NCBI GenBank assembly: GCA_027310625.1
Contig: DAIDAM010000003.1
Span: 2,239 to 66,238 of the forward strand
Direction of reading: 5' to 3'
Origin: a bacterium
Lineage (GTDB): Bacteria; Patescibacteriota; Minisyncoccia; UBA6257; 2-01-FULL-56-20
Length of the DNA: 64,000 bases
The translations under genes and the position numbers were made by a program. The notes under the pieces are model-generated. The model was given only the letters and a program-made list of their open reading frames with translations, searched no databases and was not told where the DNA came from. This document shows, one piece after another, positions 2,158 through 55,215 of the stretch (position 1 is its first letter; every line of letters starts with the position of its first letter).

Positions 2158-3555
2158 ATGCTTTCGGAATTCCTCGGAGTAATTTGGCAGATAATCTACA
2201 CAGGCGGCACGGGAGTTTTGAATTTCCTCGCGATAAGCTGGTGGCTTTGGACGTTTATAATACTTCTCGGGCTCACTTATTCGGCATGGTTCACGTGGAG
2301 AAAATTCATCTACAAGGAAAAAACCGATTTCATACTGCTGGAAATTAAAATCCCCCGCGAGCTGAAAGAAAATCCGAGGGCAATGGAGCAGGTTTTTACC
2401 GCGGTGCATTCTTTGCGAAACGTCTACAGCACATGGCTGGAGAAATGGTGGGACGGGGAAATAACGCGCTGGTATTCTTTTGAAATAGTAAGTTTCGGCG
2501 GCGAAACGCATTTTTACGTCCGCCTTTACAAAAAACAAAAGTCCCTGATGGAAGCGGCGTTTCTTTCTTATTATCCGGATATCGAGCTGGTGGAAGTTGA
2601 CGATTATATTGACCGTCTGCCGAAAAACGTATCGGAGATGTACGAGCAGGGATACGACATTTGGGGGAGCGAGATTGCGCTGACCAGAGAAGCGGCTTAT
2701 CCGATTAAAACGTACGTTGATTTCGAGTCGTCTCCCGACGAAGAAAAACAGTACGATACAATGTCGAGTTATCTTGAGTTTTTCTCAAGTTTAAAGAAGG
2801 AGGAGATAATAGCTTTTCAAATACTGGTGGCGCCAGCCGACCCCGACTGGTGGGAAAAATGGAAGGGACTTTTGGACAAACTCAACCAAAGAGCGGAAGA
2901 CAAACAAAAATCGGCAACCGCCACTTCCTTCCCGAGCGATTACGCAATCGGGCCGCTGCCGAGGTTTGAAATAGTGAAGCCGACAAAAGACGAGCTGAAA
3001 TTGCTGAAAACCGCTTTCAGAACTCCGGGGGAAACCGCCATCCTTGAAAAAGTCGCCAACAATTTGTCCAAGTTGGCTTTCGACACGACTATCCGCTTTA
3101 TCTATTTGGCGCCGAGGTCGATATATTACGATACCATACCGAGGCGAGGAGTGAAGGGAATTTTAGCCCACTTCGCCTCCCTCGACTTGAACTCCCTGGA
3201 TTACAAAATAAAAACCGACGTCGGTTCTGCGAGAGTGCTTCTCTTCAAGCCGCCGTACATCTTCCCAAAAAAAAGAGCGGAAAAAAGAAAAGCAAGAATT
3301 CTTTATAACTACATTCACAGAGAAATCCCGGAAGAAAATTTCGTCGGCGAAGTAATAACGTCGAGTTTATTCAGCTGGAGTTTTTCATCGAAGCGTTTTG
3401 AAATGAACACGGAGTGCCTGGCGACGATTTTCCATCCGCCGACGTACCTTTCGCTGACGGCGCCCCATATCGAGCGTGTAGAAAGCAAAAAGGGAGGGCC
3501 GCCCGCCGGACTGGCGATTTTCGGCGGCGAAGAAAACGTCGAAAAATTAAAATGA
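2158..3555 (+). CDS. hypothetical membrane-anchored protein (N-terminal 2 TM + ~400 aa soluble domain), upstream partner of ATPase copy 1
   Basis: 465 aa, no recognisable catalytic motif. Hydrophobic N-terminus 'FLAISWWLWTFIILLGLTYSAWF'. Same strand and close spacing with the ATPase at 4212. Confidence 0.5.
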   Translation: MLSEFLGVIWQIIYTGGTGVLNFLAISWWLWTFIILLGLTYSAWFTWRKFIYKEKTDFILLEIKIPRELKENPRAMEQVFTAVHSLRNVYSTWLEKWWDGEITRWYSFEIVSFGGETHFYVRLYKKQKSLMEAAFLSYYPDIELVEVDDYIDRLPKNVSEMYEQGYDIWGSEIALTREAAYPIKTYVDFESSPDEEKQYDTMSSYLEFFSSLKKEEIIAFQILVAPADPDWWEKWKGLLDKLNQRAEDKQKSATATSFPSDYAIGPLPRFEIVKPTKDELKLLKTAFRTPGETAILEKVANNLSKLAFDTTIRFIYLAPRSIYYDTIPRRGVKGILAHFASLDLNSLDYKIKTDVGSARVLLFKPPYIFPKKRAEKRKARILYNYIHREIPEENFVGEVITSSLFSWSFSSKRFEMNTECLATIFHPPTYLSLTAPHIERVESKKGGPPAGLAIFGGEENVEKLK

Positions 3556-3676: not shown

Positions 3677-4174
3677 ATGGACCAACAAACAATCGTTTAT
3701 CTTTACGAACTTTTCAAAACGATTTTCACCGCCGCCAATGTTTTCTTGCTGGTATTTTTTGTTTTCTTGGTGATAAAGTCCGTAAAATACAGACCTAATT
3801 TCAAAATTGCAGAGGAAGAAAAAAAGGAGATAGTTTACACTCTGGGAAATGTTGTCATCCGCGAACGCTGGCAGTCCATCGTCAATAGGAGCAGAATAAA
3901 TTCTCCCGAAGCGATGAAACTCGCGGTGATTGACGCCGACAACCTTGTTGACGAACTTTTGAAAAGAATGGGTCTGGAAGGGGAGCACATGGCCGACCGC
4001 CTGGAAAATCTCACAACCGAGGACTTCAGAAGCCTCGATCGCATATGGGACGCCCATCGGCTGAGAAACAGATTGGTTCACGAATCGGGATTCGTTGTTT
4101 CACGCGAGGAAGCATGGAAAGCGATTGAGGATTACGCTTCGTTCCTTAAAGAAATAAGGGTGATTGAGGAATAA
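3677..4174 (+). CDS. small hypothetical protein with N-terminal TM helix (possible C-terminal Rx4H HEPN-like motif, weak)
   Basis: 165 aa. TM 'IFTAANVFLLVFFVFLVI'. C-terminal 'RLRNRLVHE' fits an R-x4-H pattern, which is speculative. Sits between the membrane protein and ATPase 1. Confidence 0.4.
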   Translation: MDQQTIVYLYELFKTIFTAANVFLLVFFVFLVIKSVKYRPNFKIAEEEKKEIVYTLGNVVIRERWQSIVNRSRINSPEAMKLAVIDADNLVDELLKRMGLEGEHMADRLENLTTEDFRSLDRIWDAHRLRNRLVHESGFVVSREEAWKAIEDYASFLKEIRVIEE

Positions 4175-4211: not shown

Positions 4212-5651
4212 ATGCCAAAAGCCGGCAAAATTCAGATAATAAAATACGCCCCGCCTCCGCCGGAACTGCCAGTTTACGGAAGAGTGAAAACAAGGGACGT
4301 TTCTTTCGTCGGAAGGACAAACTACGTCGCCGCTCTTGAAGAAAAAAGATTTATTTTCGGGATAAAACGCATAGACCGCAGGCGCCACCTTTACATAATA
4401 GGAAAAACCGGCGTGGGCAAATCGAAGATGCTCGAACTGCTCATGCGGCAGGACATCGCCTACGGATACGGCGCGTGCTTCATCGACCCTCACGGCGACG
4501 TTATTGATTCGCTCCTGGATTTCGTTCCGGAAGAAAGAATGGACGACGTGGTTATCATCGACCCCTCGGACGCGAAACACCCGGTATCTTTCAATCCGCT
4601 CGCAAACGTAATAGCCGATTTCAAGCACCAGTTGGCGCAGGACCTGATTGAAGTGATGCAAAAACAGTTCGGAGCGAACTGGACTCCGCGACTGGAGCAC
4701 GTTTTTCGCTTCAGCGTTCTTGCGCTTCTCGATTATCCGCACGCGACCATGCGCGGAATGATTTCGCTTTTGACGGACAGGAATTACCGACAAAAAGTTA
4801 TCGAATACATAGAAGACGACATGGTGCGGCGTTTCTGGGCTATTGAGTTCGCCGATTGGAGCGAAAAGTTCGACACCGACGCCATCATTCCGCTTGTCAA
4901 CAAACTCGGGCAATTCCTTTCCAACCCGTTGCTCCGCAACATTTTCGGTCAAAAGGAAAACAAAATTGATTTGGACCGCTTCATGAAAGAGAAAAAAATA
5001 ATTTTCATCAATCTTTCCAAGGGACGGCTGGGAGAAGAAAACTCAAGCTTTTTCGGCTCTATGTTTCTGACAAAAATAAAGCAGGCAGGGATGGCGAGGG
5101 CAAGAATGAGGCCCGAAGAACGGGAGGACTTTTATTTGTACGTGGATGAGTTTCATAATGTCGTGACGGACACTTTTGAAAACCTTCTTACCGAATCGAG
5201 AAAATACGGCCTCTGCATAACCATCGCGCATCAGTACTTCGGCCAGCTGACGTCAAGGGTGCAATCGGCGGCGCTGGGAAACTCCGGAAACATAATTGTT
5301 TTCCGCGTCGGCGGTGAGGACGCGGTGAAACTCAAGCCGGAAATGTCGCCCGTATTTGATACGAAAGATATGATAAATCTCGGCACGCAGGAATTTTACA
5401 TAAAGGAAACGATAGACGGCGAAACCTATGACCCGTTTTCCGCAGAAACGCTGAAAGTAATGCCCGCGCCGCATCCGTCTTACCGGGAACGAATCATTGA
5501 GCAGTCGCGCGCGAAGTATTCCATCACCGCCGACGCGGCGAAAAAACTTATAAAAGAGGAGGAGTCGTCAATACTCCGGCATTCCCGCGAAAAAGCGATT
5601 ATAGAGGGTTCAACAAGCGCGGCGGAAAAAGAACCGGAACCATTAATTTAG
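4212..5651 (+). CDS. FtsK/HerA/TraD(VirD4)-superfamily P-loop ATPase (DUF87-like), copy 1
   Basis: 479 aa. Walker A 'IIGKTGVGKS', Walker B 'FYLYVDEFHN', Arg-finger/ATQ-type motif 'RKYGLCITIAHQYFGQL'. Paralogous to 11901-13652, aligning from 'RRHLYIIGKTG' to 'IAHQY'. Confidence 0.8.
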   Translation: MPKAGKIQIIKYAPPPPELPVYGRVKTRDVSFVGRTNYVAALEEKRFIFGIKRIDRRRHLYIIGKTGVGKSKMLELLMRQDIAYGYGACFIDPHGDVIDSLLDFVPEERMDDVVIIDPSDAKHPVSFNPLANVIADFKHQLAQDLIEVMQKQFGANWTPRLEHVFRFSVLALLDYPHATMRGMISLLTDRNYRQKVIEYIEDDMVRRFWAIEFADWSEKFDTDAIIPLVNKLGQFLSNPLLRNIFGQKENKIDLDRFMKEKKIIFINLSKGRLGEENSSFFGSMFLTKIKQAGMARARMRPEEREDFYLYVDEFHNVVTDTFENLLTESRKYGLCITIAHQYFGQLTSRVQSAALGNSGNIIVFRVGGEDAVKLKPEMSPVFDTKDMINLGTQEFYIKETIDGETYDPFSAETLKVMPAPHPSYRERIIEQSRAKYSITADAAKKLIKEEESSILRHSREKAIIEGSTSAAEKEPEPLI

Positions 5652-7815: not shown

Positions 7816-7842
7816 CCCTCATTCGCGCGAATGGTAGAATAA
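7816..7842. promoter_or_regulatory. 27-bp operator/promoter motif CCCTCATTCGCGCGAATGGTAGAATAA (14-bp perfect palindrome CATTCGCGCGAATG fused to a TAGAAT -10-like box), copy 1, ~30 nt upstream of arsR-like gene
   Basis: The identical 27-mer occurs at 10078-10104. A 26-bp perfect-palindrome variant occurs at 8171-8196. All three sit immediately upstream of consecutive genes. Confidence 0.7.
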
Positions 7843-7872
7843 GAAAAGAGGTAAGGCAATCCAATGATATAA

Positions 7873-8148
7873 TTGCAATTGCAAACCATGAAAGAACTCG
7901 AACGAAATTTGAAAGCATTAGCCAATCGCAGGCGGCTGGCCATTTTGAAGTATCTCAAAGAAAATCGCGAAGCGTCGGTAGGCGATATTGCGGCAGAAAT
8001 AAATCTTTCGCTAAAAGCAACTTCAAAACATTTGGGAGTTCTCGCAGCGGCGGATATTGTGGAAAAAGACCAAAGAAGCTCGCAAGTATTTTATCGGCTT
8101 GCTTCTCCCGTAAAATCGGCGGCAAGGCATATTGTGTTACTTCTTTAA
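7873..8148 (+). CDS. ArsR/SmtB-family HTH transcriptional regulator
   Basis: 91 aa. 'NRRRLAILKYLKENREASVGDIAAEINLSLKATSKHLGVLAAADIV' is the classic ArsR wHTH. Confidence 0.85.
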   Translation: MQLQTMKELERNLKALANRRRLAILKYLKENREASVGDIAAEINLSLKATSKHLGVLAAADIVEKDQRSSQVFYRLASPVKSAARHIVLLL

Positions 8149-8170: not shown

Positions 8171-8196
8171 TTCCACCATTCGCGCGAATGGTGGAA
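8171..8196. promoter_or_regulatory. 26-bp perfect palindrome TTCCACCATTCGCGCGAATGGTGGAA (operator variant, copy 2) upstream of Zn-ribbon gene A
   Basis: The sequence equals its own reverse complement. It shares the CCATTCGCGCGAATGG core with the copies at 7816 and 10078. Confidence 0.7.
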
Positions 8197-8249
8197 TGTG
8201 GAAAACAAATGGAAAACAAAAAACTTTTGAAACAATCATCAAAAGTAAA

Positions 8250-10064
8250 ATGAATTCCGAAACGAGAAATTGTCAAAACTGCAAGCAGAATTTCGTCATT
8301 GATTCCGATGATTTTGCTTTCTATGAAAAAATGAAAGTTCCGCCGCCGACGTTCTGCCCGGAATGCAGAATGATAAGGCGATTCGTCTGGCGCAACGAGC
8401 GGCATCTTTTCCGGAGAAAAGACGATGCGACCGGAATGGTTCGACCCGGTTCACCACCACAGGAAATTTTCTCGAGTTTTCCGCCGCAGGTAACTGTAAA
8501 GGTTTATAACCATGATTACTGGTGGAGCGACAACTGGGACCCGTCGGACTACGGACGCGATTACGACTTTTCCCGTCCGTTTTTTGAACAATTCAGAGAA
8601 CTGTTTTACAGCGTCCCGTTGCCCGCAAGGAGCGTTTTCGACACAACCAATTCTGAATATTGCGACAACGCTTCTTATGTAAAAAATTCGTATCTTTCTT
8701 TCAATGTCGGATACTTGGAAAACTCCGCTTACTGCGTTACAACCTTCTACAGCAAAGATAATTTAGACCTCTACGAAGCAAGACACGCCGAGCTATCTTA
8801 TGAAAATTACATGTCGGACGAGGCGTATCGCGTCTTTTTTTCCGTTAATATTGAGGATTCAACCGACATCTGGTTTTCGCGAAATCTTATGGGGTGCAAT
8901 AACTGCTTCGGATGCGTGAATCTGCGCAACAAGTCCTATTACATTTTCAACAAACCGTACTCCAAAGAGGATTACTTCGCCTACATAAAACAATTTGACC
9001 TCGGCTCTTACAAAACAAAAGAAGAATTGTTGAATCGCGCCCGCAAATTCTGGATGCAGTTTCCGATGCGCTTCACGCTCGCGATAAACGTCGTTAATTC
9101 CACAGGCGAACACATTGAGCACTCGCGGAACCTGAAAAGGTGCTATTCCATCCACAAAGGAGAAAATATGGCTTACTGTCAAATTTTTGAACCGCCGGGG
9201 GCCGATTCGTACGATTGCACGGTTTTTGGCTGGGGCGCATCGCGGAGTTATGAATCCCTTGTCTGCGGCGAAGAGTGCTATGATTTAAAGTTTTGCATTG
9301 AGTGCTGGCCGAGTTTAACCAATCTTGAATATTCCGCCCATTGTCATTCCTCCAATAATCTCTTCGGCTGTATTGGTTTGAAGAAAAAAGAATACTGCAT
9401 TTTGAACAAGCAATACTCGAAAGAAGAGTATTTCAAACTCCGCGAAAAAATAATACAACATATGAACGAAATGCCCTACATAGGCAAAATCCGAAATCAG
9501 AAATCCGAAATCCGAAACATTGAATACAAATACGGGGAATTTTTTCCGGCGGAGCTTTCTCCGTTCGCTTACAACGAAACACTTGCAAACGACTTCTTCC
9601 CGCTGACGAAAGAAGAAGCGGAGGCAAAAGGATTTCTCTGGCGCGAACAGGAACGGAGGGAATACGAAACGACGATAAACGCTTTGGATTTGCCGGACAA
9701 CATCAAAGACGTTCAGGATTCCATTCTCAAGGAAATCATAAAATGCGGCGACTGCGGACGGGCGTACAGAATAATTGAGATGGAGCTTCAGTTTTACCGC
9801 CGCATCCCGCTTCCGCTGCCGCGAAAATGTCCGGAGTGCAGATTCAAAGACAGATTCAAATTTGTAAACCCGCCGAAGTTGTGGAAAGGGAAATGTCAGT
9901 GCGCGGGAGAAACCAGTGACCAGCGACCAGAGACCAGTTACAGAAACGCTGTAAAGCATTTTCACGGAGCGGAACATTGCCCGAATGAATTTGAAACATC
10001 TTACCAACCCAACAGGCCGGAAATTGTTTACTGCGAAAGCTGTTATAACAGCGAGGTTGCTTGA
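8250..10064 (+). CDS. multi-zinc-ribbon protein A (N-terminal CxxC...CPxCR ribbon, internal Cys-containing repeats, C-terminal double ribbon)
   Basis: Start moved to 'MNSETRNCQNCKQNF' by analogy with paralog B ('MNNETKTCQNCKNQF'); the ORF-track start at 8196 lies inside the palindrome. Motifs 'KVPPPTFCPECRMIRR', 'NCFGCVNLRNKSYYIFNKPYSKEDYF', 'FGCIGLKKKEYCILNKQYSKEEYF', 'CGDCGRAYRIIEMELQFYRRIPLPLPRKCPECR'. Confidence 0.7.
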   Translation: MNSETRNCQNCKQNFVIDSDDFAFYEKMKVPPPTFCPECRMIRRFVWRNERHLFRRKDDATGMVRPGSPPQEIFSSFPPQVTVKVYNHDYWWSDNWDPSDYGRDYDFSRPFFEQFRELFYSVPLPARSVFDTTNSEYCDNASYVKNSYLSFNVGYLENSAYCVTTFYSKDNLDLYEARHAELSYENYMSDEAYRVFFSVNIEDSTDIWFSRNLMGCNNCFGCVNLRNKSYYIFNKPYSKEDYFAYIKQFDLGSYKTKEELLNRARKFWMQFPMRFTLAINVVNSTGEHIEHSRNLKRCYSIHKGENMAYCQIFEPPGADSYDCTVFGWGASRSYESLVCGEECYDLKFCIECWPSLTNLEYSAHCHSSNNLFGCIGLKKKEYCILNKQYSKEEYFKLREKIIQHMNEMPYIGKIRNQKSEIRNIEYKYGEFFPAELSPFAYNETLANDFFPLTKEEAEAKGFLWREQERREYETTINALDLPDNIKDVQDSILKEIIKCGDCGRAYRIIEMELQFYRRIPLPLPRKCPECRFKDRFKFVNPPKLWKGKCQCAGETSDQRPETSYRNAVKHFHGAEHCPNEFETSYQPNRPEIVYCESCYNSEVA

Positions 10065-10077
10065 GTGGAAATTATGT

Positions 10078-10104
10078 CCCTCATTCGCGCGAATGGTAGA
10101 ATAA
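10078..10104. promoter_or_regulatory. operator/promoter motif copy 3 (identical 27-mer to copy 1) upstream of Zn-ribbon gene B
   Basis: CCCTCATTCGCGCGAATGGTAGAATAA, ~50 nt upstream of the start at 10153. Confidence 0.7.
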
Positions 10105-10152
10105 ACAAAACAACAAAATCATAGGCGCTATGACTAGTCATAGCGGTATAAA

Positions 10153-11880
10153 ATGAACAACGAAACCAAAACCTGTCAAAATTGCAAAAACCAGTTTGCC
10201 GTCGAGCCAGATGATTTTGATTTCTACGCCAAAATCAAAGTCCCGCCGCCGACGTTCTGCCCGCCGTGCCGACTGCAGAGGCGGCTGGCGTTTTTCAATA
10301 TTTTCAATCTCTATAAACGGCCGTGCGATTTATGCAAGAAAGATTTCATTTCGATGTATCGAGCCGACACGCCGTACACTATTTACTGCCCGAAATGCTG
10401 GTGGAGCGACGATTGGGATACTTTTGAATACGGCAGAGAATACGATTTTTCGCGGCCGTTTTTCGAGCAATACAACGAACTACTGCATCGAGTTCCGCTC
10501 ATCGGCGCTTCGATAGATATTCCGACAATGGAAACATCGCCGTACACGAACCATGCCGGCCATCTCAAGAATTCTTACCTTTTGTTCCACGTCGATTATG
10601 TCGAAGATTCCGCTTACGGATTTAACACATTCAACAATAAATCATTATTTGACTGTACCAATTTAATTCTATCCGAATTATCTTATGACATAATTCACGC
10701 CTACAAGATATCGCGCTCCGCCGGCTCGCAGGATTTGCTCGAATCCATCAATTGTTTCTTTATGAAGGATTCGGAAAATTGCCAAGATTGTTTTGCGTCC
10801 GCGAATTTACGGAATAAAAAACACTACATTTTCAATGAGCCGTATTCCAAAGAGGACTATTTTGACGAAATCAAGAAATGGAATTTAGGTTCTTATAAAA
10901 TTTATCAAGAAGTTAAAAAACGGGCGGAAGAGCACTGGAAAAAATTTCCGCCAGACCCGATTTATCAAAAATTTGCCATTAATTCAACGGGGAACAGGAT
11001 ATATGAGTCGAAAAACTGCAAGGAATGTTTTGAGGTCTCTTATGCCGAGGACTGCAAATGGGCGATGATGATGTACATTCGGACAATTAAGGATTGTTAC
11101 GACGTCGTCAGTTGGGGAAATAATATGTCGCGTTCGTACGAGTGCTGCAATGTCGGCGAGGATGTTTCCGAAGCGCGGTTCTGCAGCGAATCCGGACTGG
11201 GATTGATGGACGCAGAATATTGCAAACTCTCGACGGGCAACCATCATTTCGGCTGCGTATCCGTAAAGAAAGGCGATTACGTAATTCTAAACAAAAAATA
11301 TTCAGAGGATGAGTACCGGAAATTGCGCGAAAAAATTATCGCGCAAATGAACGAGTTGCCCTACGTTTCAAGGGCGACCAGCAACCGGGGACCAGAGACA
11401 AGGGAGATAATTTACAAATACGGGGAATTTTTCCCGGCGGAAATCAGCCCCTTTGCCTACAACGAAACGATTGCAAATAATTTCTTTCCCTTGGAAAAAG
11501 AAAAGGTCTTGGCGAACAGCTGGCGATGGAACGAACCGGAAACGCACGCCTACTCAATTACAAAACACGCCCAAGATTTGCCCGACCACATAAAAGACGC
11601 CGGTGACGATATTTTGAAAGAGGTAATCGCCTGCGCGAAATGCGGACGGGGATTCAGAATCATACGAATGGAACTCGATTTTCTGCGGCGGATGAATTTG
11701 CCTTTGCCGCGCGAGTGTCCGTTTTGCCGCATCGGCGAGAAATTCAATTACTGGGTCAAAGAATCGCGGCTGGTGAAACGAACCTGCGACAAATGCGGCG
11801 CGGAATTCGACAGCCCGCACACGAAAGAGAACTATCCGAAAATTCTTTGCAAAAAACACTGGCTGGAAGAAGTGGTGTAA
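10153..11880 (+). CDS. multi-zinc-ribbon protein B (tandem paralog of A)
   Basis: 575 aa, collinear with A: 'KVPPPTFCPPCRLQRR', 'YDFSRPFFEQYNEL', 'ANLRNKKHYIFNEPYSKEDYF', 'FGCVSVKKGDYVILNKKYSEDEYRKLREKIIAQMNELPYV', 'CAKCGRGFRIIRMELDFLRRMNLPLPRECPFCR'. It carries an extra CxxC...CPKCWW ribbon where A has lost the cysteines. Confidence 0.7.
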   Translation: MNNETKTCQNCKNQFAVEPDDFDFYAKIKVPPPTFCPPCRLQRRLAFFNIFNLYKRPCDLCKKDFISMYRADTPYTIYCPKCWWSDDWDTFEYGREYDFSRPFFEQYNELLHRVPLIGASIDIPTMETSPYTNHAGHLKNSYLLFHVDYVEDSAYGFNTFNNKSLFDCTNLILSELSYDIIHAYKISRSAGSQDLLESINCFFMKDSENCQDCFASANLRNKKHYIFNEPYSKEDYFDEIKKWNLGSYKIYQEVKKRAEEHWKKFPPDPIYQKFAINSTGNRIYESKNCKECFEVSYAEDCKWAMMMYIRTIKDCYDVVSWGNNMSRSYECCNVGEDVSEARFCSESGLGLMDAEYCKLSTGNHHFGCVSVKKGDYVILNKKYSEDEYRKLREKIIAQMNELPYVSRATSNRGPETREIIYKYGEFFPAEISPFAYNETIANNFFPLEKEKVLANSWRWNEPETHAYSITKHAQDLPDHIKDAGDDILKEVIACAKCGRGFRIIRMELDFLRRMNLPLPRECPFCRIGEKFNYWVKESRLVKRTCDKCGAEFDSPHTKENYPKILCKKHWLEEVV

Positions 11881-11900: not shown

Positions 11901-13652
11901 ATGGCTCCGTTTTTCAAAACCGACAAGCAGAAAGACGTCGTTTATTTCGCGCGCACCGATTTCCGCAATCAGAATCGGCTTTTCGGCATTAAAAGAAAAG
12001 ACCGCCGCCAGCACACGTACGTCGTCGGCAAAACCGGCACCGGTAAAACCGCGCTCCTCAACAATTTAATTGTTCAAGACATCGCAAACGGCGAAGGCGT
12101 CTGCGTCATTGACCCGCACGGCGAGCTCGTCGAGGGATTGCTCGACAAAATTCCGGCCGAGCGGATAAACGACATCATCTATTTCAATCCCGCCGACCCC
12201 GACCACCACATCGGTTTCAACATTCTGGAATTGCCCGACCCGAAATACAAACATCTGGTCGCTTCCGGTTTGATGGGAATTTTCACCAAAATCTGGTCGA
12301 ATGTCTGGTCGGCAAGAATGGAATACATTTTGAATAACGCCGTTTTGGCGCTTCTCGAAAATCCCGGCTCGACTTTGCTCGGCATCAACCGCATTCTTGT
12401 CGACAAGGACTACCGACAGCAAATCATTTCCAACGTCAAAGACCCGGTGATCAAGGCGTTTTGGGTCAACGAATACGAACAGTGGCGCGACCAGTTCCGG
12501 AACGAAGCCATCGCCCCGATTCAAAACAAAGTCGGCCAGTTCCTTTCGACGGCGATGATTCGAAACATCGTCGGGCAGGAAAAAAGCACGATAAACATTT
12601 TCGATTTGATGAACGAGAAAAAAATACTTCTCGTGAATGTCTCCAAGGGAAGAATAGGGGAGGACAATTCGGCGCTTCTGGGCGCGATGCTCATCACCAA
12701 AATTCAGCTTTCGGCGATGGAACGCGTCAGGATTCCCGAAGACGAGCGTCCGGATTTTTATCTTTACGTCGACGAGTTCCAGAATTTCGCCACCGATTCT
12801 TTTGCCGGCATTTTGTCCGAAGCAAGAAAATATCGCCTGAATCTCATCGTCGCGCATCAGTACATCGGACAATTGGTCACCGATGTTTCCACAAAAGTCC
12901 GCGACGCGGTCTTCGGGAACGTTGGGACAATGATTCTTTTCAGAATAGGCGCGGCGGACGCGGAATTTCTGGAAACGGAATTTGAACCGGAATTCGCCAT
13001 TCAGGACATGGTCAATCTGCCGAACTACCGCATTTACCTGAAATTGATGGTTGACGGCATCACCTGCCGTCCGTTTTCCGCGCAAACTTTGCCGCCGTTC
13101 AATCTCGAATCATCGGAGGAAATAAAAGATAAAATCATCGCCGTTTCGAGGAAACTTCATTCAAAGCCGAGCGTGGAAGTGGAAAAGGCGATCAATCGCT
13201 GGAGCGGAATGATGGGCGAAACTGCGGCACAGCTGCCCGGAGCCAAAATGTTTCCGGCTGTTTGCTCGAACTGCGGTAAAAACACCATGGTGCCTTTCGA
13301 GCCGGCGAAGGGCAGACCGGTTTACTGCGACGATTGTTTTGAAAAGATACAATCGGGAAAACTCGCTCCCGTCGGCGGCGCAGGAAGACAGGGAAAACCA
13401 TCGGAAGAATTCTCGCGCGACCTTGCGGAACTCGGAATAGAATTCGAATTCAGAAAACCGCCGGCGAGACGTTTGGAAGAAGTGCCCTCGGCGATTCCCG
13501 TTGAAAGAAAAGGAATTTCGCTCGCGGAATTGAAGCCGCAGGAGGAGAAAGAGAGAAAAGAAAAGACGAAGCAGGCGGGCGAAAAACCGAAAGTGGATAT
13601 AAACGAACTCCGCGAAGCGATAAAAGAATCGCTTAAGAAAGCAGAGGGTTAA
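11901..13652 (+). CDS. FtsK/HerA/TraD(VirD4)-superfamily P-loop ATPase (DUF87-like), copy 2, with C-terminal zinc ribbon and K/E-rich tail
   Basis: 583 aa. Walker A 'YVVGKTGTGKT', Walker B 'FYLYVDEFQNF', 'RKYRLNLIVAHQYIGQL'. C-terminal 'CSNCGKNTMVPFEPAKGRPVYCDDCF' followed by 'KPQEEKERKEKTKQAGEKPK'. Confidence 0.8.
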   Translation: MAPFFKTDKQKDVVYFARTDFRNQNRLFGIKRKDRRQHTYVVGKTGTGKTALLNNLIVQDIANGEGVCVIDPHGELVEGLLDKIPAERINDIIYFNPADPDHHIGFNILELPDPKYKHLVASGLMGIFTKIWSNVWSARMEYILNNAVLALLENPGSTLLGINRILVDKDYRQQIISNVKDPVIKAFWVNEYEQWRDQFRNEAIAPIQNKVGQFLSTAMIRNIVGQEKSTINIFDLMNEKKILLVNVSKGRIGEDNSALLGAMLITKIQLSAMERVRIPEDERPDFYLYVDEFQNFATDSFAGILSEARKYRLNLIVAHQYIGQLVTDVSTKVRDAVFGNVGTMILFRIGAADAEFLETEFEPEFAIQDMVNLPNYRIYLKLMVDGITCRPFSAQTLPPFNLESSEEIKDKIIAVSRKLHSKPSVEVEKAINRWSGMMGETAAQLPGAKMFPAVCSNCGKNTMVPFEPAKGRPVYCDDCFEKIQSGKLAPVGGAGRQGKPSEEFSRDLAELGIEFEFRKPPARRLEEVPSAIPVERKGISLAELKPQEEKERKEKTKQAGEKPKVDINELREAIKESLKKAEG

Positions 13653-35524: not shown

Positions 35525-36448
35525 ATGATTCTTAATTCTCGATTTGTTTTCTTCGGCACGCCGGAATTTGCCGCAACAATCCTTGAAAAGCTGATAAGTT
35601 CCGGATTTGTTCCGGAGGCGGTTGTCTGCAACCCCGACCGCCCCGTCGGCAGGAAGAAGGTTATCACTCCCCCGCCGGTGAAACTGCTAATTATGAAGCA
35701 GGAAGCAAGAATCAAGAAGCAAGTTAAAATTTTTCAGCCAGAAAAATTAGATAAACAATTTCTTGATTCATTATTCTTGATTCATGATTCTTTTGATTTT
35801 TTTGTCGTTGCCGCCTATTCCCAAATTCTCCCTAAAGAAATAATCGAAATACCGCGGCTCGGAACAATCGGCGTCCATCCTTCGCTTCTGCCGAAATACC
35901 GCGGCGCCTCCCCCATCCAAGGCGCGATACTGAACGGAGAAAAGGAAACAGGCGTAACGCTTTATTTGATGGACGAGAAAACGGACCATGGGAAAATAGT
36001 ATCAAGTATCAGGTATCAAGTATCAGGGAATGAGAATTACAAAACATTGGAAAAAGAACTTGCGGAACTCGCGGGAAATCTGCTTGTGGAAACGTTGCCG
36101 AAATTCATCAAAGGAGAAATAAAACCCGTGCCGCAGGACGAATCAAAGGCGACCTACACGAAAAAATTCACGACTGAAGACGCGTTCATTGATGAAAAAA
36201 CTCTGGAAGAAGCGCTAAACGGAGAAAATGAAGAAACGGCTGAAAAAATCTATCGCAAAATTCTGGCTCTCAATCCCGAGCCGGGAACATGGACGTATGC
36301 GCGAGCACTGGAACATTCCAACGTTCTTGAGAATGTTGGAATGTCGTCTTCCGGCAAACGGATTAAGATTTTGGAGGCAAAAATTGAAAACGGAAAACTT
36401 GTTCTGAAAAAAATCCAGATTGAAGGAGAAAAACCCAAAGCCGTTTAG
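35525..36448 (+). CDS. fmt: methionyl-tRNA formyltransferase
   Basis: 'VFFGTPEFAATILEKL', 'NPDRPVGRKK', 'GVHPSLLPKYRGASPIQ'. Contains short in-frame repeat words (aagaatcaagaagcaag; agtatcaagtatcaggtatcaagtatcag). Confidence 0.9.
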   Translation: MILNSRFVFFGTPEFAATILEKLISSGFVPEAVVCNPDRPVGRKKVITPPPVKLLIMKQEARIKKQVKIFQPEKLDKQFLDSLFLIHDSFDFFVVAAYSQILPKEIIEIPRLGTIGVHPSLLPKYRGASPIQGAILNGEKETGVTLYLMDEKTDHGKIVSSIRYQVSGNENYKTLEKELAELAGNLLVETLPKFIKGEIKPVPQDESKATYTKKFTTEDAFIDEKTLEEALNGENEETAEKIYRKILALNPEPGTWTYARALEHSNVLENVGMSSSGKRIKILEAKIENGKLVLKKIQIEGEKPKAV

Positions 36449-38544
36449 CCGCGTCCCGATTCTTCCTCAACTTCCCAAACCTCTTTGCCGATATAGCGGC
36501 TGACCGCGTCCAGGTCCTTCATAAGTTTTTCTTCGCGGAGTTTTTCCTCCACGGAAATTTCTTTGCTCAATTTCACCTTGCGGATGACATTAAGTTCCGC
36601 TTCTATGTCGCGCTTCAAAATGGAAAACCCGCGGCGAACTGACTCTTCCGCTTCCTTAAGCATCGCATTGAGCCGGCGTTTCTTAACGTTGTAGTGATAA
36701 GCATGATAGACGGTGTAGGCGAGCAAACCGAGGAATGCAACAATGAATATGATGAAGAGAACGAGGTAAAGGTTCTCGAAACTCAAGCGCTTGCCGCCTA
36801 TTTGTATCGCCGTCTTCGCGACCGAAAGGTCCACTCGCGGGCTCGGCGGACTCACGCTGTCGCCATTCTGCAGCTGTGTCCAGGCGATATACTTGCCGGC
36901 GTCAAAGAATTTGGGGAAGGAGAAAAACCACGAACCGTCTTTGTCGGTCGTCGCCGTCTCCCCTATTGTGCTGCCGGTCTCCAGATTCTGAAGATAAATG
37001 AGAACTTTCGCCTGCGGAATTCCGGCGTTGCCGCCGATGTAAAGAATCTCGTCGTTCGAAATCGCCTGCGGGAAGAGAGTGACCACGGGCGGCTGCAGCG
37101 GAACGTTGTCTGTCGCCTGTGATTGCGATTGCGCGGCTTTCGCGGGAATGCCGGCGAACATCGAAAGCGAAAAGACGATTGCGAAGATGAGCGCTATCGC
37201 CAAATGTCTCCCGCCATATCCTTTGAATCTTTCCCTCATTTTTTTCAATTCTTCCAGTCCCGGAAGAATCGAGGGATGCTTCAGGCCGCCGTGCGCGAGG
37301 TGCTCTTCGATTTCGCGGTGCCGTTCCCAAAGCAGTTTCGCGAAATAGAAAAGTCCGATGAGAATTACGGCGCCGAGCGGCAGGGCGTAAATCCAGGGAA
37401 TGACGTATTCTCCTATGCCGATTCCTTCCAAATAAATAAATTCGAAGAATAGTTTTGTGATTGTCAGGTTTTGTTCCGTCTGATAATAGTTTCCCGCTTT
37501 GTCGTAGGCTTTGACGATGACTTTATAGCGTCCTTCGTCCAAATTGCGCGAATAAGGAGGCGCGGCCTCTATGAAAAACGGATTATTTCCCTGCGACGCG
37601 AGAGCGAGCTGTTTGTCGAGAGACGTGATGTTAAGTTCGTAATGGTCGATTCCGGAGGCGGCGTCGGTGGTTGCAAAATCGATAATCGGCCTGCGGTTGG
37701 AAGTTTGCCTGCTCGGCGAAATGTTTACTTTGAAAGACGCCGGCGGCGTGTTGTCCACATTTATGATGTAATCCGTTATTCCACCCCAGCTGCCGCTTCT
37801 CAGCGTTTTGATATGAAAATAGTAAACGCCGTCTGCTAAATTGTTGTACACTGCTCTCGTCTTAATACCTTCGGGAACATCGTCCACATCCGTAACAGGA
37901 TTCTGGTCGAGAATGTAACTGTAACCCTCGATATCCGGCGGGGAAGTCCATTCTAAAGAAACGGTTTTGGTGTTGTACCATTTTTCCTGGTCGGGGTTGG
38001 TTCTCGACGTGACTATCGGGCCAGCGGGCGGCGGCAGCGTGAGATAATAAACGCCGTCGGTCATTTGACCGAGAACGTTCGTGCCGCGGCCGTCGTTCAA
38101 AAGCACGCGCGAACTGTCGGAAAATTTCAAAACCGCCGTCCCGATGCTCTTTACGCGGAAAGTGACAGTTGAAATCAGTCCACCGTCGGTATTCAGCCCC
38201 GGCGCCGGTATCGCGCCCTGAAAATTAAGCGTGCCGTTCAGATTATCGTAAGACGGTTGGTTGACCCAGACCTGTATGGAAGACCTGCCCGCCGTAGGCG
38301 AAGCAACCTGCAGTTTATCCGGCGGAAAAGTGAGATTGGCTTCGACGGCGTTGACCGACTGCCCTCCCGTATCCACGTAAATGGAAACGGAAAAAGTGCT
38401 CCCGCTCGTGAAACTTCCGCTCGCCGGTGAAACGTAAAGCGAAGCGGCGGCATTCGCTCCTGACGGCGAAATAAAAAAACCGACGAAAAGGGCGCTTACC
38501 AAAACAACGGAAAAACGACAGGTTTTTGTCTGTTTATCCATCAC
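36445..38544 (-). CDS. large surface protein: signal peptide, cohesin-like domain, Ig/FN3-like domains, TM helix, cytoplasmic coiled-coil tail
   Basis: N-terminus 'LYVSPASGSFTSGSTFSVSIYVDTGGQSVNAVEANLTFPPDKLQV...TVTFRVKSIGTAVLKF' is cohesin-like. 'DNTPPASFKVNISPSRQTSNRRPIIDFATTDAASGIDHYEL' is paralogous to the 45030-45989 protein. TM 'VIPWIYALPLGAVILIGLFYF'. Confidence 0.65.
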   Translation of the reverse strand: MMDKQTKTCRFSVVLVSALFVGFFISPSGANAAASLYVSPASGSFTSGSTFSVSIYVDTGGQSVNAVEANLTFPPDKLQVASPTAGRSSIQVWVNQPSYDNLNGTLNFQGAIPAPGLNTDGGLISTVTFRVKSIGTAVLKFSDSSRVLLNDGRGTNVLGQMTDGVYYLTLPPPAGPIVTSRTNPDQEKWYNTKTVSLEWTSPPDIEGYSYILDQNPVTDVDDVPEGIKTRAVYNNLADGVYYFHIKTLRSGSWGGITDYIINVDNTPPASFKVNISPSRQTSNRRPIIDFATTDAASGIDHYELNITSLDKQLALASQGNNPFFIEAAPPYSRNLDEGRYKVIVKAYDKAGNYYQTEQNLTITKLFFEFIYLEGIGIGEYVIPWIYALPLGAVILIGLFYFAKLLWERHREIEEHLAHGGLKHPSILPGLEELKKMRERFKGYGGRHLAIALIFAIVFSLSMFAGIPAKAAQSQSQATDNVPLQPPVVTLFPQAISNDEILYIGGNAGIPQAKVLIYLQNLETGSTIGETATTDKDGSWFFSFPKFFDAGKYIAWTQLQNGDSVSPPSPRVDLSVAKTAIQIGGKRLSFENLYLVLFIIFIVAFLGLLAYTVYHAYHYNVKKRRLNAMLKEAEESVRRGFSILKRDIEAELNVIRKVKLSKEISVEEKLREEKLMKDLDAVSRYIGKEVWEVEEESGRG

Positions 38545-52120: not shown

Positions 52121-53596
52121 TTACTGGCTTGAAGTTATGATTCTGAAGGCATCGTTCGACCTGACTGAAACGTAGACGAAGTTGTCCTCGTAATCTATCC
52201 CGGTGCCTACGTTGGGGAAATTGTACGAACTCCAGAGCGAAGGCGCGGAGGAAGTGGAGATATTCCATGCCTGGAACTCTTTATTCGTGTCCGATGTGGC
52301 AAGAAACGCAAGGTAATCTGTAACGTAAATCCCGTTAACCGATACGTTTCCCAAATTCGCAATGCCGAGCTGCGTCGGCGAGGAAGAATTGGAAACGTCG
52401 ATAATGATGAAATCGCTCGTTCCACCGGCTCTCCCGAGATAAGCTTTCGCGCCGGAAATGTAAATACTTTTCCCGTCGTCATTCCCCGAAGCGTTGAAAC
52501 TGCCGAGTTGCGCTATATGCGCGGGGTCGCTAACGTCGAGAATTAGAAGTTCCTTGGAATCGTCGGAGGTGGCGAGGTAAGCGGTCGTGCCGGAAACGAA
52601 AATGTCGTTCACGTCCGCTCCCACTTCGTAACTTCCGAACTCCGAGGGCGCCGCGGGATTAGAAACGTCGACGACATGAAACTCCGGTCCGCTCGCCGCT
52701 TTCGTGCCGATGTAGATTTTATTGTTGTAGAAAAACAGGCTTTGTCCCATTGCTCCTGAGCCGGAAACGCCTGGGAGTTTGAAAGACGCGAGAACGTAGG
52801 GCGCGGCGGGATTGTTCATATCTATCACCTGCAGCTGGGCGTTAGTGTCGGAATTGGCGACGTAGGCGTAATTTTGGACGGCATCGACAGCATTAAGTCC
52901 CGGACCGGTGTCAATTTTGGAAACGAGGTAGGGATTCCGGCCGTCGGTGGCGTTGATGATGAAAAAGTCGGGCTTGGTGCGATCCGACGCGGTGGCCGAC
53001 ATATAAATTATTTTGTTGATGACGTCTAAGCCGGTGGCGGACTCACCCGGCCCCAGGTCTATCGAGCCGAATGTGGTCGGATTTTTCCAATCGCCTGTCA
53101 CTCCCCCGCCACTGGTGTCTCCGCCGGTTGCCTGATTAACCTGCCAATTGGTGACAATTGTCGTCAGTTCAATTTTTTGGATGCGCAAGGGGTCGGTGCT
53201 CCAGCTCACTCGGCTCGTAATTTTTTTCTTGTTCGCGTCAACGTTTTCAACAATTATTTCTTTTAGAAATTCTCCTTGTGTGCTTGAACTTGAAACAAGT
53301 CCGCCGAAGTCGTTTTTCGCAAAAGCGATGGAATTCTCAATTGATTGCCTCGCCAAGTTAACGGCTCGGTTTGATTCCTGTGTATCCGCCAAAAGCGATT
53401 GACTGCTCGAAATTACCACTGCTATCGCCGACAAACTTATCGCGATAACGGCAAAGGCGATAAGAATTTCAAGCGTTGACTGCCCGGCTGCTCTAGAGAC
53501 CAGAGACCAGAAAGTAGAAACCGGGGGACGGAAACTAGAGACTAGAAACCGGAGACCAGAGAAAGAGAATAGGTTTGTTATTTTTGCGTTGTCCAT
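52121..53596 (-). CDS. large pilin-like protein with C-terminal LVIVD-repeat beta-propeller (putative pilus tip adhesin)
   Basis: 'AAGQSTLEILIAFAVIAISLSAIAVV' prepilin-like helix. Repeated 'YAYVANSDTNAQLQVIDMNNPAAP', 'AYLATSDDSKELLILDVSDPAHIA', 'FIIIDVSNSSSP' match LVIVD repeats. The N-terminal leader is encoded by GACCAGAGACCAG-type tandem repeats. Confidence 0.6.
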   Translation of the reverse strand: MDNAKITNLFSFSGLRFLVSSFRPPVSTFWSLVSRAAGQSTLEILIAFAVIAISLSAIAVVISSSQSLLADTQESNRAVNLARQSIENSIAFAKNDFGGLVSSSSTQGEFLKEIIVENVDANKKKITSRVSWSTDPLRIQKIELTTIVTNWQVNQATGGDTSGGGVTGDWKNPTTFGSIDLGPGESATGLDVINKIIYMSATASDRTKPDFFIINATDGRNPYLVSKIDTGPGLNAVDAVQNYAYVANSDTNAQLQVIDMNNPAAPYVLASFKLPGVSGSGAMGQSLFFYNNKIYIGTKAASGPEFHVVDVSNPAAPSEFGSYEVGADVNDIFVSGTTAYLATSDDSKELLILDVSDPAHIAQLGSFNASGNDDGKSIYISGAKAYLGRAGGTSDFIIIDVSNSSSPTQLGIANLGNVSVNGIYVTDYLAFLATSDTNKEFQAWNISTSSAPSLWSSYNFPNVGTGIDYEDNFVYVSVRSNDAFRIITSSQ

Positions 53597-53645
53597 ATTT
53601 TTATTTCTTGCCCGGTTGCCGGTCACTGGTTACTGGTCGCTCTTT

Positions 53646-54158: not shown

Positions 54159-55215
54159 AAATCGGCGTTATTATGGAGAGAGCAACAAAACCGACGATTA
54201 ACCCCATGAAAACAAGGAGTGCCGGCTCAAGCAACTCAGTTAACCTTGAAACCATCAACTGCACTTCTTCGGCGTAGTAGTCGGAAAGATAAAAAAGATT
54301 TTCCTCCAAATTGCCCGTGTTCTCCCCTATTTCAATCAAACTCAAAAGTATGTAAGGGAAAAACTTTTTGTTCTTGTTCAAAATGTTCACGAATTGCTCT
54401 CCTTTTCTTATATCGTCCGCCGTCTGAAGAAGTATCCTCCTGTAAACGAGATTGTTCAGCGTATAAGCCGTTATACTAACGGCTTCAACTATTTTTACGC
54501 CGCTTTTAAGAAGGACGGCCATCGTCCTCGTGAAATTGGACATCGCCATTCCCACTGTGAGCGACGAAACAATCGGCGTATAAAAGAGAAGCATATTTGA
54601 AACGTACTTCACCGGCTGGAAGCGAAGAGCGATTCTCAAAACAACGATGACCAAAACGAGCGCAACAATTAAAGTCCACCAGTAATTGAGGAGGAAATTG
54701 AAAACAACTATGAGAATTTTTGTCGTAATCGGAAGTTCTATCCTTAAGCTTGAAAATATCGGGAGGACCTTCGGGAAAACGGAGAAAGTAAGAAGAGCCG
54801 TTATGCCTATCGTTGCCGTAAAAATCACGATGGGATAAATCATCGCCGAACGGATTTTGTTTTTAAGTTCCTTCGCTTTTTTCATTTCGTCCGCAAGATA
54901 AAGAAGATTCTGAAAAAGCGTCCCGCTTTGCTCGCCGACGTGGACGATGCTTATGAAAAAATCGCTGAAAACGTTTCTGTGTTTTTCCATTCCCTGCGCG
55001 AGAAATTGTCCGCCTTCCACGCTTGAAATGATGTCCCCTATTGCCCGCTTCAGCGCGCCGGATTGCGTTTGTTTTTCAACTATTTTCAGCGATTCCAAAA
55101 GGGGCATCCCCGACTTTATCGTCAGAGAAAGGTGACGCGCGAAATTTATCTTTTCCTGTTCGGAGACGTGCGAAAAAACGCGCTTCCACCAAGGAAATTT
55201 TCCCTTTTTATTCAT
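54133..55215 (-). CDS. pilC: type IV pilus assembly platform protein PilC / GspF family
   Basis: Two GspF repeats, 'ARHLSLTIKSGMPLLESL', 'MAVLLKSGVKIVEAV'. 360 aa, 3 TM. Confidence 0.8.
   Translation of the reverse strand: MNKKGKFPWWKRVFSHVSEQEKINFARHLSLTIKSGMPLLESLKIVEKQTQSGALKRAIGDIISSVEGGQFLAQGMEKHRNVFSDFFISIVHVGEQSGTLFQNLLYLADEMKKAKELKNKIRSAMIYPIVIFTATIGITALLTFSVFPKVLPIFSSLRIELPITTKILIVVFNFLLNYWWTLIVALVLVIVVLRIALRFQPVKYVSNMLLFYTPIVSSLTVGMAMSNFTRTMAVLLKSGVKIVEAVSITAYTLNNLVYRRILLQTADDIRKGEQFVNILNKNKKFFPYILLSLIEIGENTGNLEENLFYLSDYYAEEVQLMVSRLTELLEPALLVFMGLIVGFVALSIITPIYEVTSSIR

Follow-up and report, generated by a model that had tools for sequence, protein, structure and literature searches.

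The stretch of DNA analyzed here, called the window throughout, comprises 64,000 nucleotides (nt) of contig DAIDAM010000003.1 (positions 2,239 to 66,238; assembly GCA_027310625.1) from a bacterium of the Patescibacteriota. It carries two adjacent genes on the same strand, here named A and B, which encode multidomain proteins of zinc ribbons and predicted beta-solenoid modules and stand between the genes of two soluble VirD4-like ATPases (Table 1). We placed the start of gene A at the ATG at position 8250; the open reading frame (ORF) itself is open from 8196, and orthologs begin with MNSE or MNQE. An original prediction, made from the DNA alone, had described A and B as collinear paralogs that were 45 to 50% identical and had been caught diverging after duplication. 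By BLASTP, the two proteins are homologous over their whole length and collinear from end to end (586 columns; E = 2e-163), with an identity slightly lower than predicted (44%). They are the sole members of their family in the window. This family is very large and uncharacterized; its parts are of familiar kinds, but they are newly arranged. The observation behind the prediction was real, and its evolutionary interpretation was partly right.

Each protein begins with a ribbon of the form C8xxC11-x24-C36PxC39R..RR, as predicted, and the proposed C-terminal ribbon (C..CGR..RII.MEL.F.RR..LPLPR.CP.CR) was likewise seen in both (ribbon 3). B also contains the additional ribbon that had been noted (ribbon 2, with the second knuckle reading C79PKC82WW), and the equivalent stretch of A, RKDDATGMVRPGSPPQE...DYWW, has no cysteine at all. 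Beyond these features, we found a fourth ribbon near the C terminus, homology between the N- and C-terminal ribbon pairs, a second 7-bp array in gene A, and a solenoid context for the CFGC motif. Ribbon 4 of A-type proteins carries an insert of the form KCQC...HFHG..HC...YCxxCY. The two-ribbon units at the N and C termini are homologous to each other (hhalign probability, 99.7%; E = 1.4e-26). The architecture is near-symmetrical, with these ribbon pairs enclosing two solenoid modules and a linker. A conserved hairpin/linker, YGEFFP..SPFAYNET, separates the solenoid modules from the second pair. AlphaFold2 (AF2) models of A and B had mean predicted local distance difference test (pLDDT) scores of 89.1 and 88.3 and predicted template modeling (pTM) scores of 0.90 and 0.89, respectively. 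In the model of A, the degenerate ribbon 2 retains its hairpin strands (E54-57 and E72-75); the insert block there has a pLDDT of 70, and the ribbon-4 insert has a pLDDT of about 81 to 82. Among the orthologs inspected, only the A protein of this genome has the 9-amino-acid (aa) insert MVRPGSPPQ in the degenerate ribbon-2 loop.

We counted 225 family genes, nearly all co-oriented, in 81 GTDB-derived loci. Ribbon conservation was followed in a sample of 205 paralogs. The Cys4 sets were 88 to 100% conserved overall and were lost solely as complete units. The four cysteines of ribbon 1 were conserved in 97 to 99% of the sampled paralogs and those of ribbon 3 (C494, C497, C522, and C525 in B) in 88 to 99%, and true ribbon cysteines covaried with phi values of 0.91 to 1.0. 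Ribbon-2 cysteines were present in 125 paralogs and covaried as one unit (phi, 0.99 to 1.0). The last ribbon-4 ligand of B (residue 569, nt 11857 to 11859) is a histidine, a state shared by 2 of the sampled paralogs against 202 with cysteine; B reads LCKKHW, and all 23 listed B orthologs read LCKKCW. The substitution is not an assembly error, since two Logan assemblies, independent of each other, yield an identical B protein.

Ribbons 1 and 3 have a Cys4 layout of two CxxC knuckles and share the CxxC...CPxCR arrangement of PF13451 (zf_Tbcl, "probable treble clef domain"), yet they remain below its gathering cutoff of 24 bits (20.3 bits for A, 19.5 bits for B ribbon 1, and no match for B ribbon 3). 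Among 77 family members, 20 matched this model at an E of ≤0.01 (best, 4.9e-5). No function is known for PF13451, and the likeness therefore says nothing on mechanism. Ribbons 2 and 4 of B have the exact Cys spacing of the CxxC-x17-CxxC domain (TIGR04272/PF23477, zf_Tbcl_2), with H569 as the last ligand of ribbon 4. The ATPase encoded downstream of B carries the same domain, and an alignment of these ATPase fingers matched B ribbon 2 with a probability of 96.9% (E = 1.9e-10) and B ribbon 4 with one of 94.4% (E = 8.7e-8) in hhalign. Neither isolated ribbon matched TIGR04272/PF23477 at an E of ≤10, below the curated cutoff, and only 2 of the 77 family members did so at an E of ≤0.01. Elsewhere the domain makes up a small protein on its own or the tail of an ATPase, whereas here it accounts for one ribbon out of four in proteins ~570 aa long. 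In small Methanosarcina mazei proteins, the domain binds zinc, as measured by inductively coupled plasma mass spectrometry (PMC12704099). B ribbons 2 and 4 are putatively zinc binding, with indirect support from the loss of the four cysteines as a unit.

The two internal repeats of the original prediction also held up (A residues 157 to 243 against 305 to 395; 37% identity; E = 3e-15), and the repeated pattern (FGC..L..K.Y.I.NK.YS.EEY) covers just the end of each of two modules, which are ~110 residues long and homologous to each other (hhalign probability, 99.9%; E = 1.5e-35). Module 1 reads as eight to nine 12-residue coils with Cys or Ser at positions 3, 6, 9, and 12. Module 2 has no comparable 12-residue periodicity and is tied to module 1 by homology alone. 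We rejected the reading of the CxxCxxC stretch (CNNCFGC) as a site for zinc or an Fe-S cluster: Cys and Ser recur with a strict period of 3 across module 1 and in a 12-residue register, Cys swaps freely with Ser, and position 216 has no covarying partner Cys. Judged by its periodicity, CFGC is predicted to be the last coil of a beta-solenoid with a 12-residue period, not a zinc knuckle or other metal site.

The coil pattern of module 1 resembles, in form only, the beetle antifreeze repeat. The feature in common with the insect antifreeze proteins (spruce budworm CfAFP, PDB 1m8n; Tenebrio-type 12-residue repeat, PF02420) is a regular, Cys-containing short coil of 12 or 15 residues, but the family differs from them in sequence (3% identity), in the lack of a Thr-x-Thr ice-binding face, in its cytoplasmic location as opposed to secretion with disulfide bonds, in Cys/Ser exchange, and in its flanking zinc ribbons. 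None of the 77 members matched Pfam AFP at an E of ≤0.01 (one paralog has a "faint" precomputed match), and the likeness is a fold resemblance only. Searches for a signal peptide or transmembrane (TM) segment in the family proteins found none, and these proteins are cytoplasmic. Foldseek against PDB returned nothing below an E of 0.39, a BFVD structure search returned local zinc-ribbon matches only, and a profile search against PDB sequences returned only insignificant LIM-finger matches (E, ~1.7). We found no solved counterpart in PDB of a cytoplasmic 12-residue Cys/Ser-ladder solenoid.

Several acidic or amide residues (D86, Q106, D317, N228, N380, and E507) are near-invariant in the paralog sample. 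The proteins could be enzymes, with a solenoid active site like that of left-handed beta-helix acyltransferases and gamma-carbonic anhydrases or with a novel nuclease or transferase activity, and the paralogs would then differ in substrate. The comparison with hexapeptide-repeat left-handed beta-helix transferases found neither the hexapeptide motif nor the 18-residue coil, and there was no match in the Pfam Hexapep test. An enzymatic role seems quite unlikely to us.

How old the gene pair is bears directly on the interpretation first offered for it, a snapshot of divergence after duplication in which the ribbon and internal repeats of A are decaying. In keeping with recent duplication, A and B are adjacent, co-oriented, and collinear, and A lacks four cysteines that B has. 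However, each protein has its own ortholog set. A search with B yielded more than 5,500 relatives, the best of which (~567 aa; 55 to 75% identical to B) belong to Liptonbacteria, Jorgensenbacteria, Giovannonibacteria, Sungbacteria, Niyogibacteria, and others; the distinct set of A orthologs (~585 aa) is 52 to 71% identical to A and comes from the same lineages, so that orthologs at 52 to 75% identity span many candidate phyla. The two types also occur together elsewhere, as on the 89,609-bp Liptonbacteria contig JACQKW010000014.1 (L016; A-type HY435_02210 and B-type HY435_02230). Ribbon-2 cysteines were absent from 38 of 38 A-type orthologs with an inspected N terminus (LFRRKDxxxGKEIFSxFP...DYWWSD) and were kept in all full-length B-type orthologs inspected. 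In the shared loci, the conservation of both sets of orthologs is about equal to that of SecF, TrmD, and the M17 peptidase, which indicates that both copies are old and under purifying selection; there is no current decay. Paralogs of one array, moreover, come from different old subfamilies. The separate ortholog sets and the uniform lack of ribbon 2 in A-type proteins led us to reject a fresh duplication, which we regard as extremely improbable. By these comparisons, the A/B split is ancient and the ribbon-2 state is fixed within each subfamily.

For the direction of the ribbon-2 change, parsimony on a midpoint-rooted neighbor-joining tree gave an unreliable result ("absent" as the root state, with at least 11 changes). 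Ribbon 2 is missing from at least six clades of the sampled paralogs. Because the N- and C-terminal ribbon pairs are homologous, the presence of ribbon 2 is likely ancestral. Together with the covariation of the four cysteines as a unit and the hairpin retained in the model of A, this homology makes loss in the A-type the most likely direction. The family also offers a clean natural series for studying how an entire Cys4 zinc site is lost repeatedly while the fold persists.

Gene A contains two 7-bp arrays. We set aside a role for them as phase-variation or slippage tracts, as each has only about four imperfect copies. The in-frame DNA repeat of the original prediction, encoding ETSDQRPETS, was found at 9908 to 9937 as a weak array (4.3 copies; 82% matches; Tandem Repeats Finder [TRF] score of 39). 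Its peptide lies in a variable loop of ribbon 4, where the nearest A orthologs have similar peptides (TSDQRQETS in P0122); the array is not a recent expansion. The second array (91% matches; TRF score of 55) encodes a loop between the helix that follows module 2 and the conserved hairpin; its total length keeps the frame, with a unit that is not a multiple of 3.

We searched 1.84 billion representatives with a profile of the family. The search returned 5,138 clusters (at 50% identity) at an E of ≤1e-3, a lower bound for the size of the family, and 2,161 at an E of ≤1e-30; the top 150 were all of the same length class. A, B, and a family sample had no match above the cutoff in Pfam or NCBIfam, and A and B had none among PDB sequences. 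Source names were all "hypothetical" or generic zinc-ribbon labels. Our literature search found no description of the family, DUF8128, or zf_Tbcl, and in Pfam, NCBIfam, PDB, and the literature, we found no database model, solved structure, or paper describing the family. The named sources are almost all Patescibacteria, chiefly Parcubacteria/Paceibacteria. Family genes also occur on contigs titled "uncultured Bdellovibrionales" (L052) and "uncultured Gammaproteobacteria" (L065). The former also holds typical Patescibacteria neighbors (the sigma/HARE protein, the 465-aa protein, and an ATPase), and the latter holds family genes only. Both are probably mislabeled bins rather than true occurrences beyond the Patescibacteria.

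The family forms paralog arrays. The 621-kb contig JANBVK010000001.1 (L008) has 11 to 12 members that are 32 to 61% identical to A or B, and a second contig has seven. The L008 array is an uninterrupted, co-oriented locus of 22 kb (~3% of the contig) save for one M17 peptidase gene, and an M17 peptidase gene adjoins B-type genes in several genomes, the window included. Clustering of the 205 paralogs gave 11 subfamilies with at least 5 members, and members of one array fall into different old subfamilies. The tiny genomes of Patescibacteria keep up to a dozen copies of a ~570-residue protein, each about as conserved as a housekeeping gene. A defense or mobile-element origin was considered and rejected: PADLOC had no match for A or B, no family relative was found in IMG/VR or GenBank phages, and the window belongs to the core of the chromosome, with genes for SecF, GltX, Mur ligase, FtsH, and TrmD.

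A shared palindrome points to common regulation of the two genes. CATTCGCGCGAATG, a perfect 14-bp palindrome, occurs exactly three times in the 64 kb (7820 to 7833, 8177 to 8190, and 10082 to 10095), a count that was matched in 0 of 100 shuffles. Each copy lies 40 to 60 bp upstream of a start codon (those of an ArsR-type gene, A, and B) and is followed by GGT(A/G)GAAT. A longer palindrome, ATTCTCTAATTCGCGCGAATTAGAGAAT, precedes an ArsR gene and family genes in L012, L015, and L016, in this form or with slight changes, and palindromes of this longer type are also present in L010 and L066. CATTCGCGCGAATG is probably the operator of the ArsR-type repressor, a putative site that would overlap separate promoters of A and B; predicted transcription starts lie near 7848, 8205, and 10110. 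A perfect hairpin with an 8-bp stem, CGCTATGACTAGTCATAGCG, lies at 10126 to 10145, directly 5' of the B start in the presumed 5' untranslated region; it is absent upstream of A.

Metal sites in ArsR/SmtB proteins are formed by an alpha-3 Cys pair or by an alpha-5 DxH...H..E pattern. The 91-aa protein encoded here has no cysteine and two histidines, neither in the alpha-5 pattern, and for lack of ligand residues we rejected it as a zinc sensor. This result weighs on the idea that A and B are zinc stores or buffers that hold three to four zinc ions each under an ArsR/SmtB-type sensor, with the A-type serving as a low-zinc alternative like the C- ribosomal paralogs. The ArsR-family gene and the shared operator upstream of A and B would fit such a role, as would the single Cys4 site by which A and B differ and the recurrence of CutA-like genes (a call made by eye) near arrays. 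However, the regulator has neither cysteines nor the SmtB alpha-5 ligands, the more than 500 conserved nonligand residues exceed the needs of a store, and A retains three ribbons; we consider the idea very improbable. In the C+/C- pairs of zinc-ribbon ribosomal proteins (L31, L33, L36, and S14), a full Cys4 ribbon is present or lost and the fold is kept. A and B show the same kind of difference, but A keeps three ribbons, and the regulator here is of the ArsR type without ligands rather than Zur.

The gene pair lies within a conserved block. SecF, a sigma-r4/HARE helix-turn-helix protein, and the 465-aa and 165-aa one-TM proteins are followed by the upstream ATPase, an opposite-strand membrane protein, an M17 peptidase, the ArsR-type regulator, A, B, the second ATPase, TrmD, and ComEC. 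Related genomes repeat this arrangement, the two ATPases enclosing 1 to 12 family genes; the order of upstream ATPase, family genes, and downstream ATPase was found in 9 loci. Both ATPases match the VirD4/TrwB nucleotide-binding domain (TrwB_AAD_bind and TraG-D_C, as well as T4SS-DNA_transf and DUF87), and a search for hydrophobic or TM segments in them found none. With type IV coupling proteins (T4CPs; VirD4, TraD, and TrwB), they share this domain but differ in having no N-terminal TM segment and, among the large ORFs of the window, no VirB4. The genes of the 465-aa and 165-aa proteins are always found ahead of the upstream ATPase gene in related loci, and the two proteins may anchor this ATPase to the membrane. 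The CxxC-x17-CxxC finger is present in 14 of 19 downstream-type ATPases compared with 0 of 25 upstream-type ATPases. Compared with the equivalent proteins of other candidate phyla, the ATPases are 57 to 78% identical, and the upstream one (66 to 78%) is conserved above SecF and TrmD in nearly every shared locus.

Of the 35 loci that span 18 kb or more, 15 contained a T4CP-like gene, as did 16 of the 29 arrays with three or more family genes. These frequencies (43 to 55%) compare with a rough expectation of ~4%, calculated for two such genes per assumed ~1-Mb genome. In more distant genomes (L044, L046, L084, and L085), the adjacency outlasts rearrangement.

Features of the locus in Table 1 are grouped by gene, with neighboring genes last.

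Table 1. Genes, domains, repeats, and putative regulatory sites in the window (HTH, helix-turn-helix; TRF, Tandem Repeats Finder)
Feature	Position (nt)	Strand	Description	Basis
Gene A	8250..10064	+	604 aa; A-type member of the zinc-ribbon/beta-solenoid family, without ribbon-2 Cys	ORF, homology, AF2
A ribbon 1	8271..8366	+	C8xxC11-x24-C36xxC39; zf_Tbcl-like treble clef	Subthreshold PF13451
A degenerate ribbon 2	8406..8528	+	Four Cys absent; 9-aa insert MVRPGSPPQ	Alignment, AF2 model
A solenoid module 1	8664..8996	+	Predicted beta-solenoid, 12-residue coils; ends in CNNCFGCVNLRNKSYYIFNKPYSKEDYF
A solenoid module 2	9108..9452	+	Predicted beta-solenoid, homologous to module 1; ends in LFGCIGLKKKEYCILNKQYSKEEYF
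7-bp array	9487..9517	+	AAATCCG x4.4, inside A; encodes KIRNQKSEIRN	TRF
A ribbon 3	9744..9839	+	C499xxC502-x24-C527xxC530	Aligns to B ribbon 1, E 3e-8
A ribbon 4	9894..10043	+	A-type-specific loop KCQC...HFHG..HC...YCESCY	Alignment, AF2
7-bp period array	9908..9937	+	AGAGACC x4.3; encodes ETSDQRPETS, variable loop of A ribbon 4	TRF
Gene B	10153..11880	+	575 aa; B-type member with all four ribbons	ORF, homology, AF2
B ribbon 1	10174..10269	+	C8xxC11-x24-C36xxC39	PF13451 19.5 bits, E 9.5e-4, below cutoff
B ribbon 2	10324..10398	+	C58xxC61-x17-C79xxC82; counterpart missing in A	hhalign to ATPase finger
B solenoid module 1	10549..10881	+	Predicted beta-solenoid
B solenoid module 2	10993..11337	+	Predicted beta-solenoid	hhalign
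B ribbon 3	11632..11727	+	C494xxC497-x24-C522xxC525	Alignment, hhalign
B ribbon 4	11785..11859	+	C545xxC548-x17-C566xxH569	hhalign to ATPase finger
Palindrome, ArsR-type gene	7820..7841	+	CATTCGCGCGAATG then GGTAGAAT (extended -10-like), upstream of ArsR-type gene
Palindrome, gene A	8177..8198	+	CATTCGCGCGAATG then GGTGGAAT, 60 bp upstream of A; extended palindrome TTCCACCATTCGCGCGAATGGTGGAA
Palindrome, gene B	10082..10103	+	CATTCGCGCGAATG then GGTAGAAT, 58 bp upstream of B
ArsR-type gene	7873..8148	+	ArsR-family winged-HTH regulator, 91 aa	HTH_20 8.9e-11, HTH_5 1.1e-9
Upstream ATPase	4212..5651	+	Soluble VirD4/TrwB/HerA-like, 479 aa; no TM, no zinc finger	TrwB_AAD_bind 3.6e-12, DUF87, TraG-D_C
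Downstream ATPase	11901..13652	+	Soluble VirD4/TraD-like, 583 aa	TrwB_AAD_bind 7.7e-14, zf_Tbcl_2 4.6e-17, TIGR04272 1e-17
Finger of downstream ATPase	13263-13337	+	CxxC-x17-CxxC, aa 455-479	zf_Tbcl_2, 61.9 bits against cutoff of 27
465-aa protein	2158-3555		One N-terminal TM helix; no Pfam match	L005 counterpart recorded as DUF8128
165-aa protein	3677-4174		One N-terminal TM helix; no Pfam match
Cohesin/Big_13 protein	36445-38544	-	698 aa
LVIVD-repeat protein	52121-53626	-
Type II/IV secretion ATPase	55208-56437	-		T2SSE, E 8.6e-124
N6 DNA methylase	59548-61059	-	Eco57I-like

The recurrent pairing with ATPases can be read in several ways. We tentatively favor, with a probability of roughly 40%, the reading that the family proteins are zinc-stabilized, nonenzymatic adaptor or binding proteins whose partners are the flanking ATPases and whose target is probably nucleic acid. 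Docking or contact with nucleic acid would be common to all paralogs and fall to the conserved ribbons and linker, and the subfamily-specific solenoid surfaces would pick each paralog's own client; subfamily-specific conservation peaks in the two solenoid modules. The client would probably be a nucleic acid or nucleoprotein substrate, which we infer from the DNA-translocase ancestry of the ATPases and from the basic CRxxRR ribbons. A and B, each with its own promoter, would be coregulated with the adjacent ArsR-type repressor through the shared palindromic operator.

Several points weigh against this adaptor reading. Single dispersed family genes had an ATPase nearby in just 1 of 12 loci, and part of the adjacency could be plain synteny, since the gene order is strongly conserved and the block also holds SecF, TrmD, and ComEC. 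The solenoid is the least confident stretch of both AF2 models (pLDDT, 70 to 78), and its subfamily-specific conservation signal is small (0.08). A and B are mildly acidic overall (isoelectric point, ~6), with only the ribbons basic. We found no characterized homolog, the adaptor role and the nucleic-acid client are inferences, and the near-invariant acidic and amide residues make a catalytic function conceivable.

If the adjacency reflected synteny only, the proteins could be core housekeeping factors that bind the ribosome, RNA polymerase, tRNA, or DNA through their ribbons, with the paralogs specialized for different RNA or protein sites. This would account for a conservation that is very high for a lineage-specific family, for the block shared with SecF, the sigma-like protein, TrmD, and ComEC, for the housekeeping genes among the other recurrent neighbors, and for dispersed single copies without ATPase neighbors; the automated label of one source also reads "Zn ribbon nucleic-acid-binding protein / Trm112 family." Such a role is possible, though on the unlikely side, given that the adjacency survives local rearrangement, that its frequency is far above the rough estimate, and that one of the ATPases shares the CxxC-x17-CxxC finger.

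Secretion offers another explanation of the ATPases. Patescibacteria are epibionts with type IV secretion systems (PMC12102498), and the paralog arrays adjoin T4CP homologs. The family proteins could then be effectors or substrates of type IV-like secretion recognized by the VirD4-like proteins, and the arrays would be a repertoire used on host cells. This seems improbable: the ATPases lack TM segments, the ten largest ORFs otherwise left in the window include no VirB4, T4CP homologs are almost never near virB4, and the family proteins are conserved far above the usual level of effectors and have no signal peptide or TM segment. Several tightly folded Cys4 zinc sites are also atypical for translocated substrates.

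A 2025 survey counted 5,713 VirD4 homologs in 2,918 Patescibacteria genomes, about two each, of which 148 are near virB4, and considered them possibly "exapted for other functions" (PMC12102498). The role of these roughly two VirD4-like proteins per genome away from secretion systems is a published open question (PMC12102498), and our data point to the family as a recurrent genomic neighbor, and candidate partner, of these orphan ATPases, one of which has a zinc finger in common with it. A bolder proposal, unlikely in our judgment, extends the adaptor reading: the paralogs, the two ATPases, and the 465-aa and 165-aa membrane proteins would form an unrecognized core machine of Patescibacteria, with the paralogs as client-specific adaptors, each passing a different nucleic-acid or protein substrate to an exapted coupling-protein motor. 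Such a machine, if real, would explain why about two "orphan" T4CP genes are kept per genome and would give a role to a family that fills up to ~3% of a 0.6-Mb genome (11 to 12 genes of ~1.7 kb each on contig JANBVK010000001.1).

Two further small genes recur beside the family. A CutA-like protein of 101 aa (identified by eye) is encoded no more than 4 kb away from family genes in 10 loci (e.g., L019, 5088 to 5390), and a 142-aa cytidylyltransferase-like protein (Pfam CTP_transf_like) is encoded near family genes in 8 loci.

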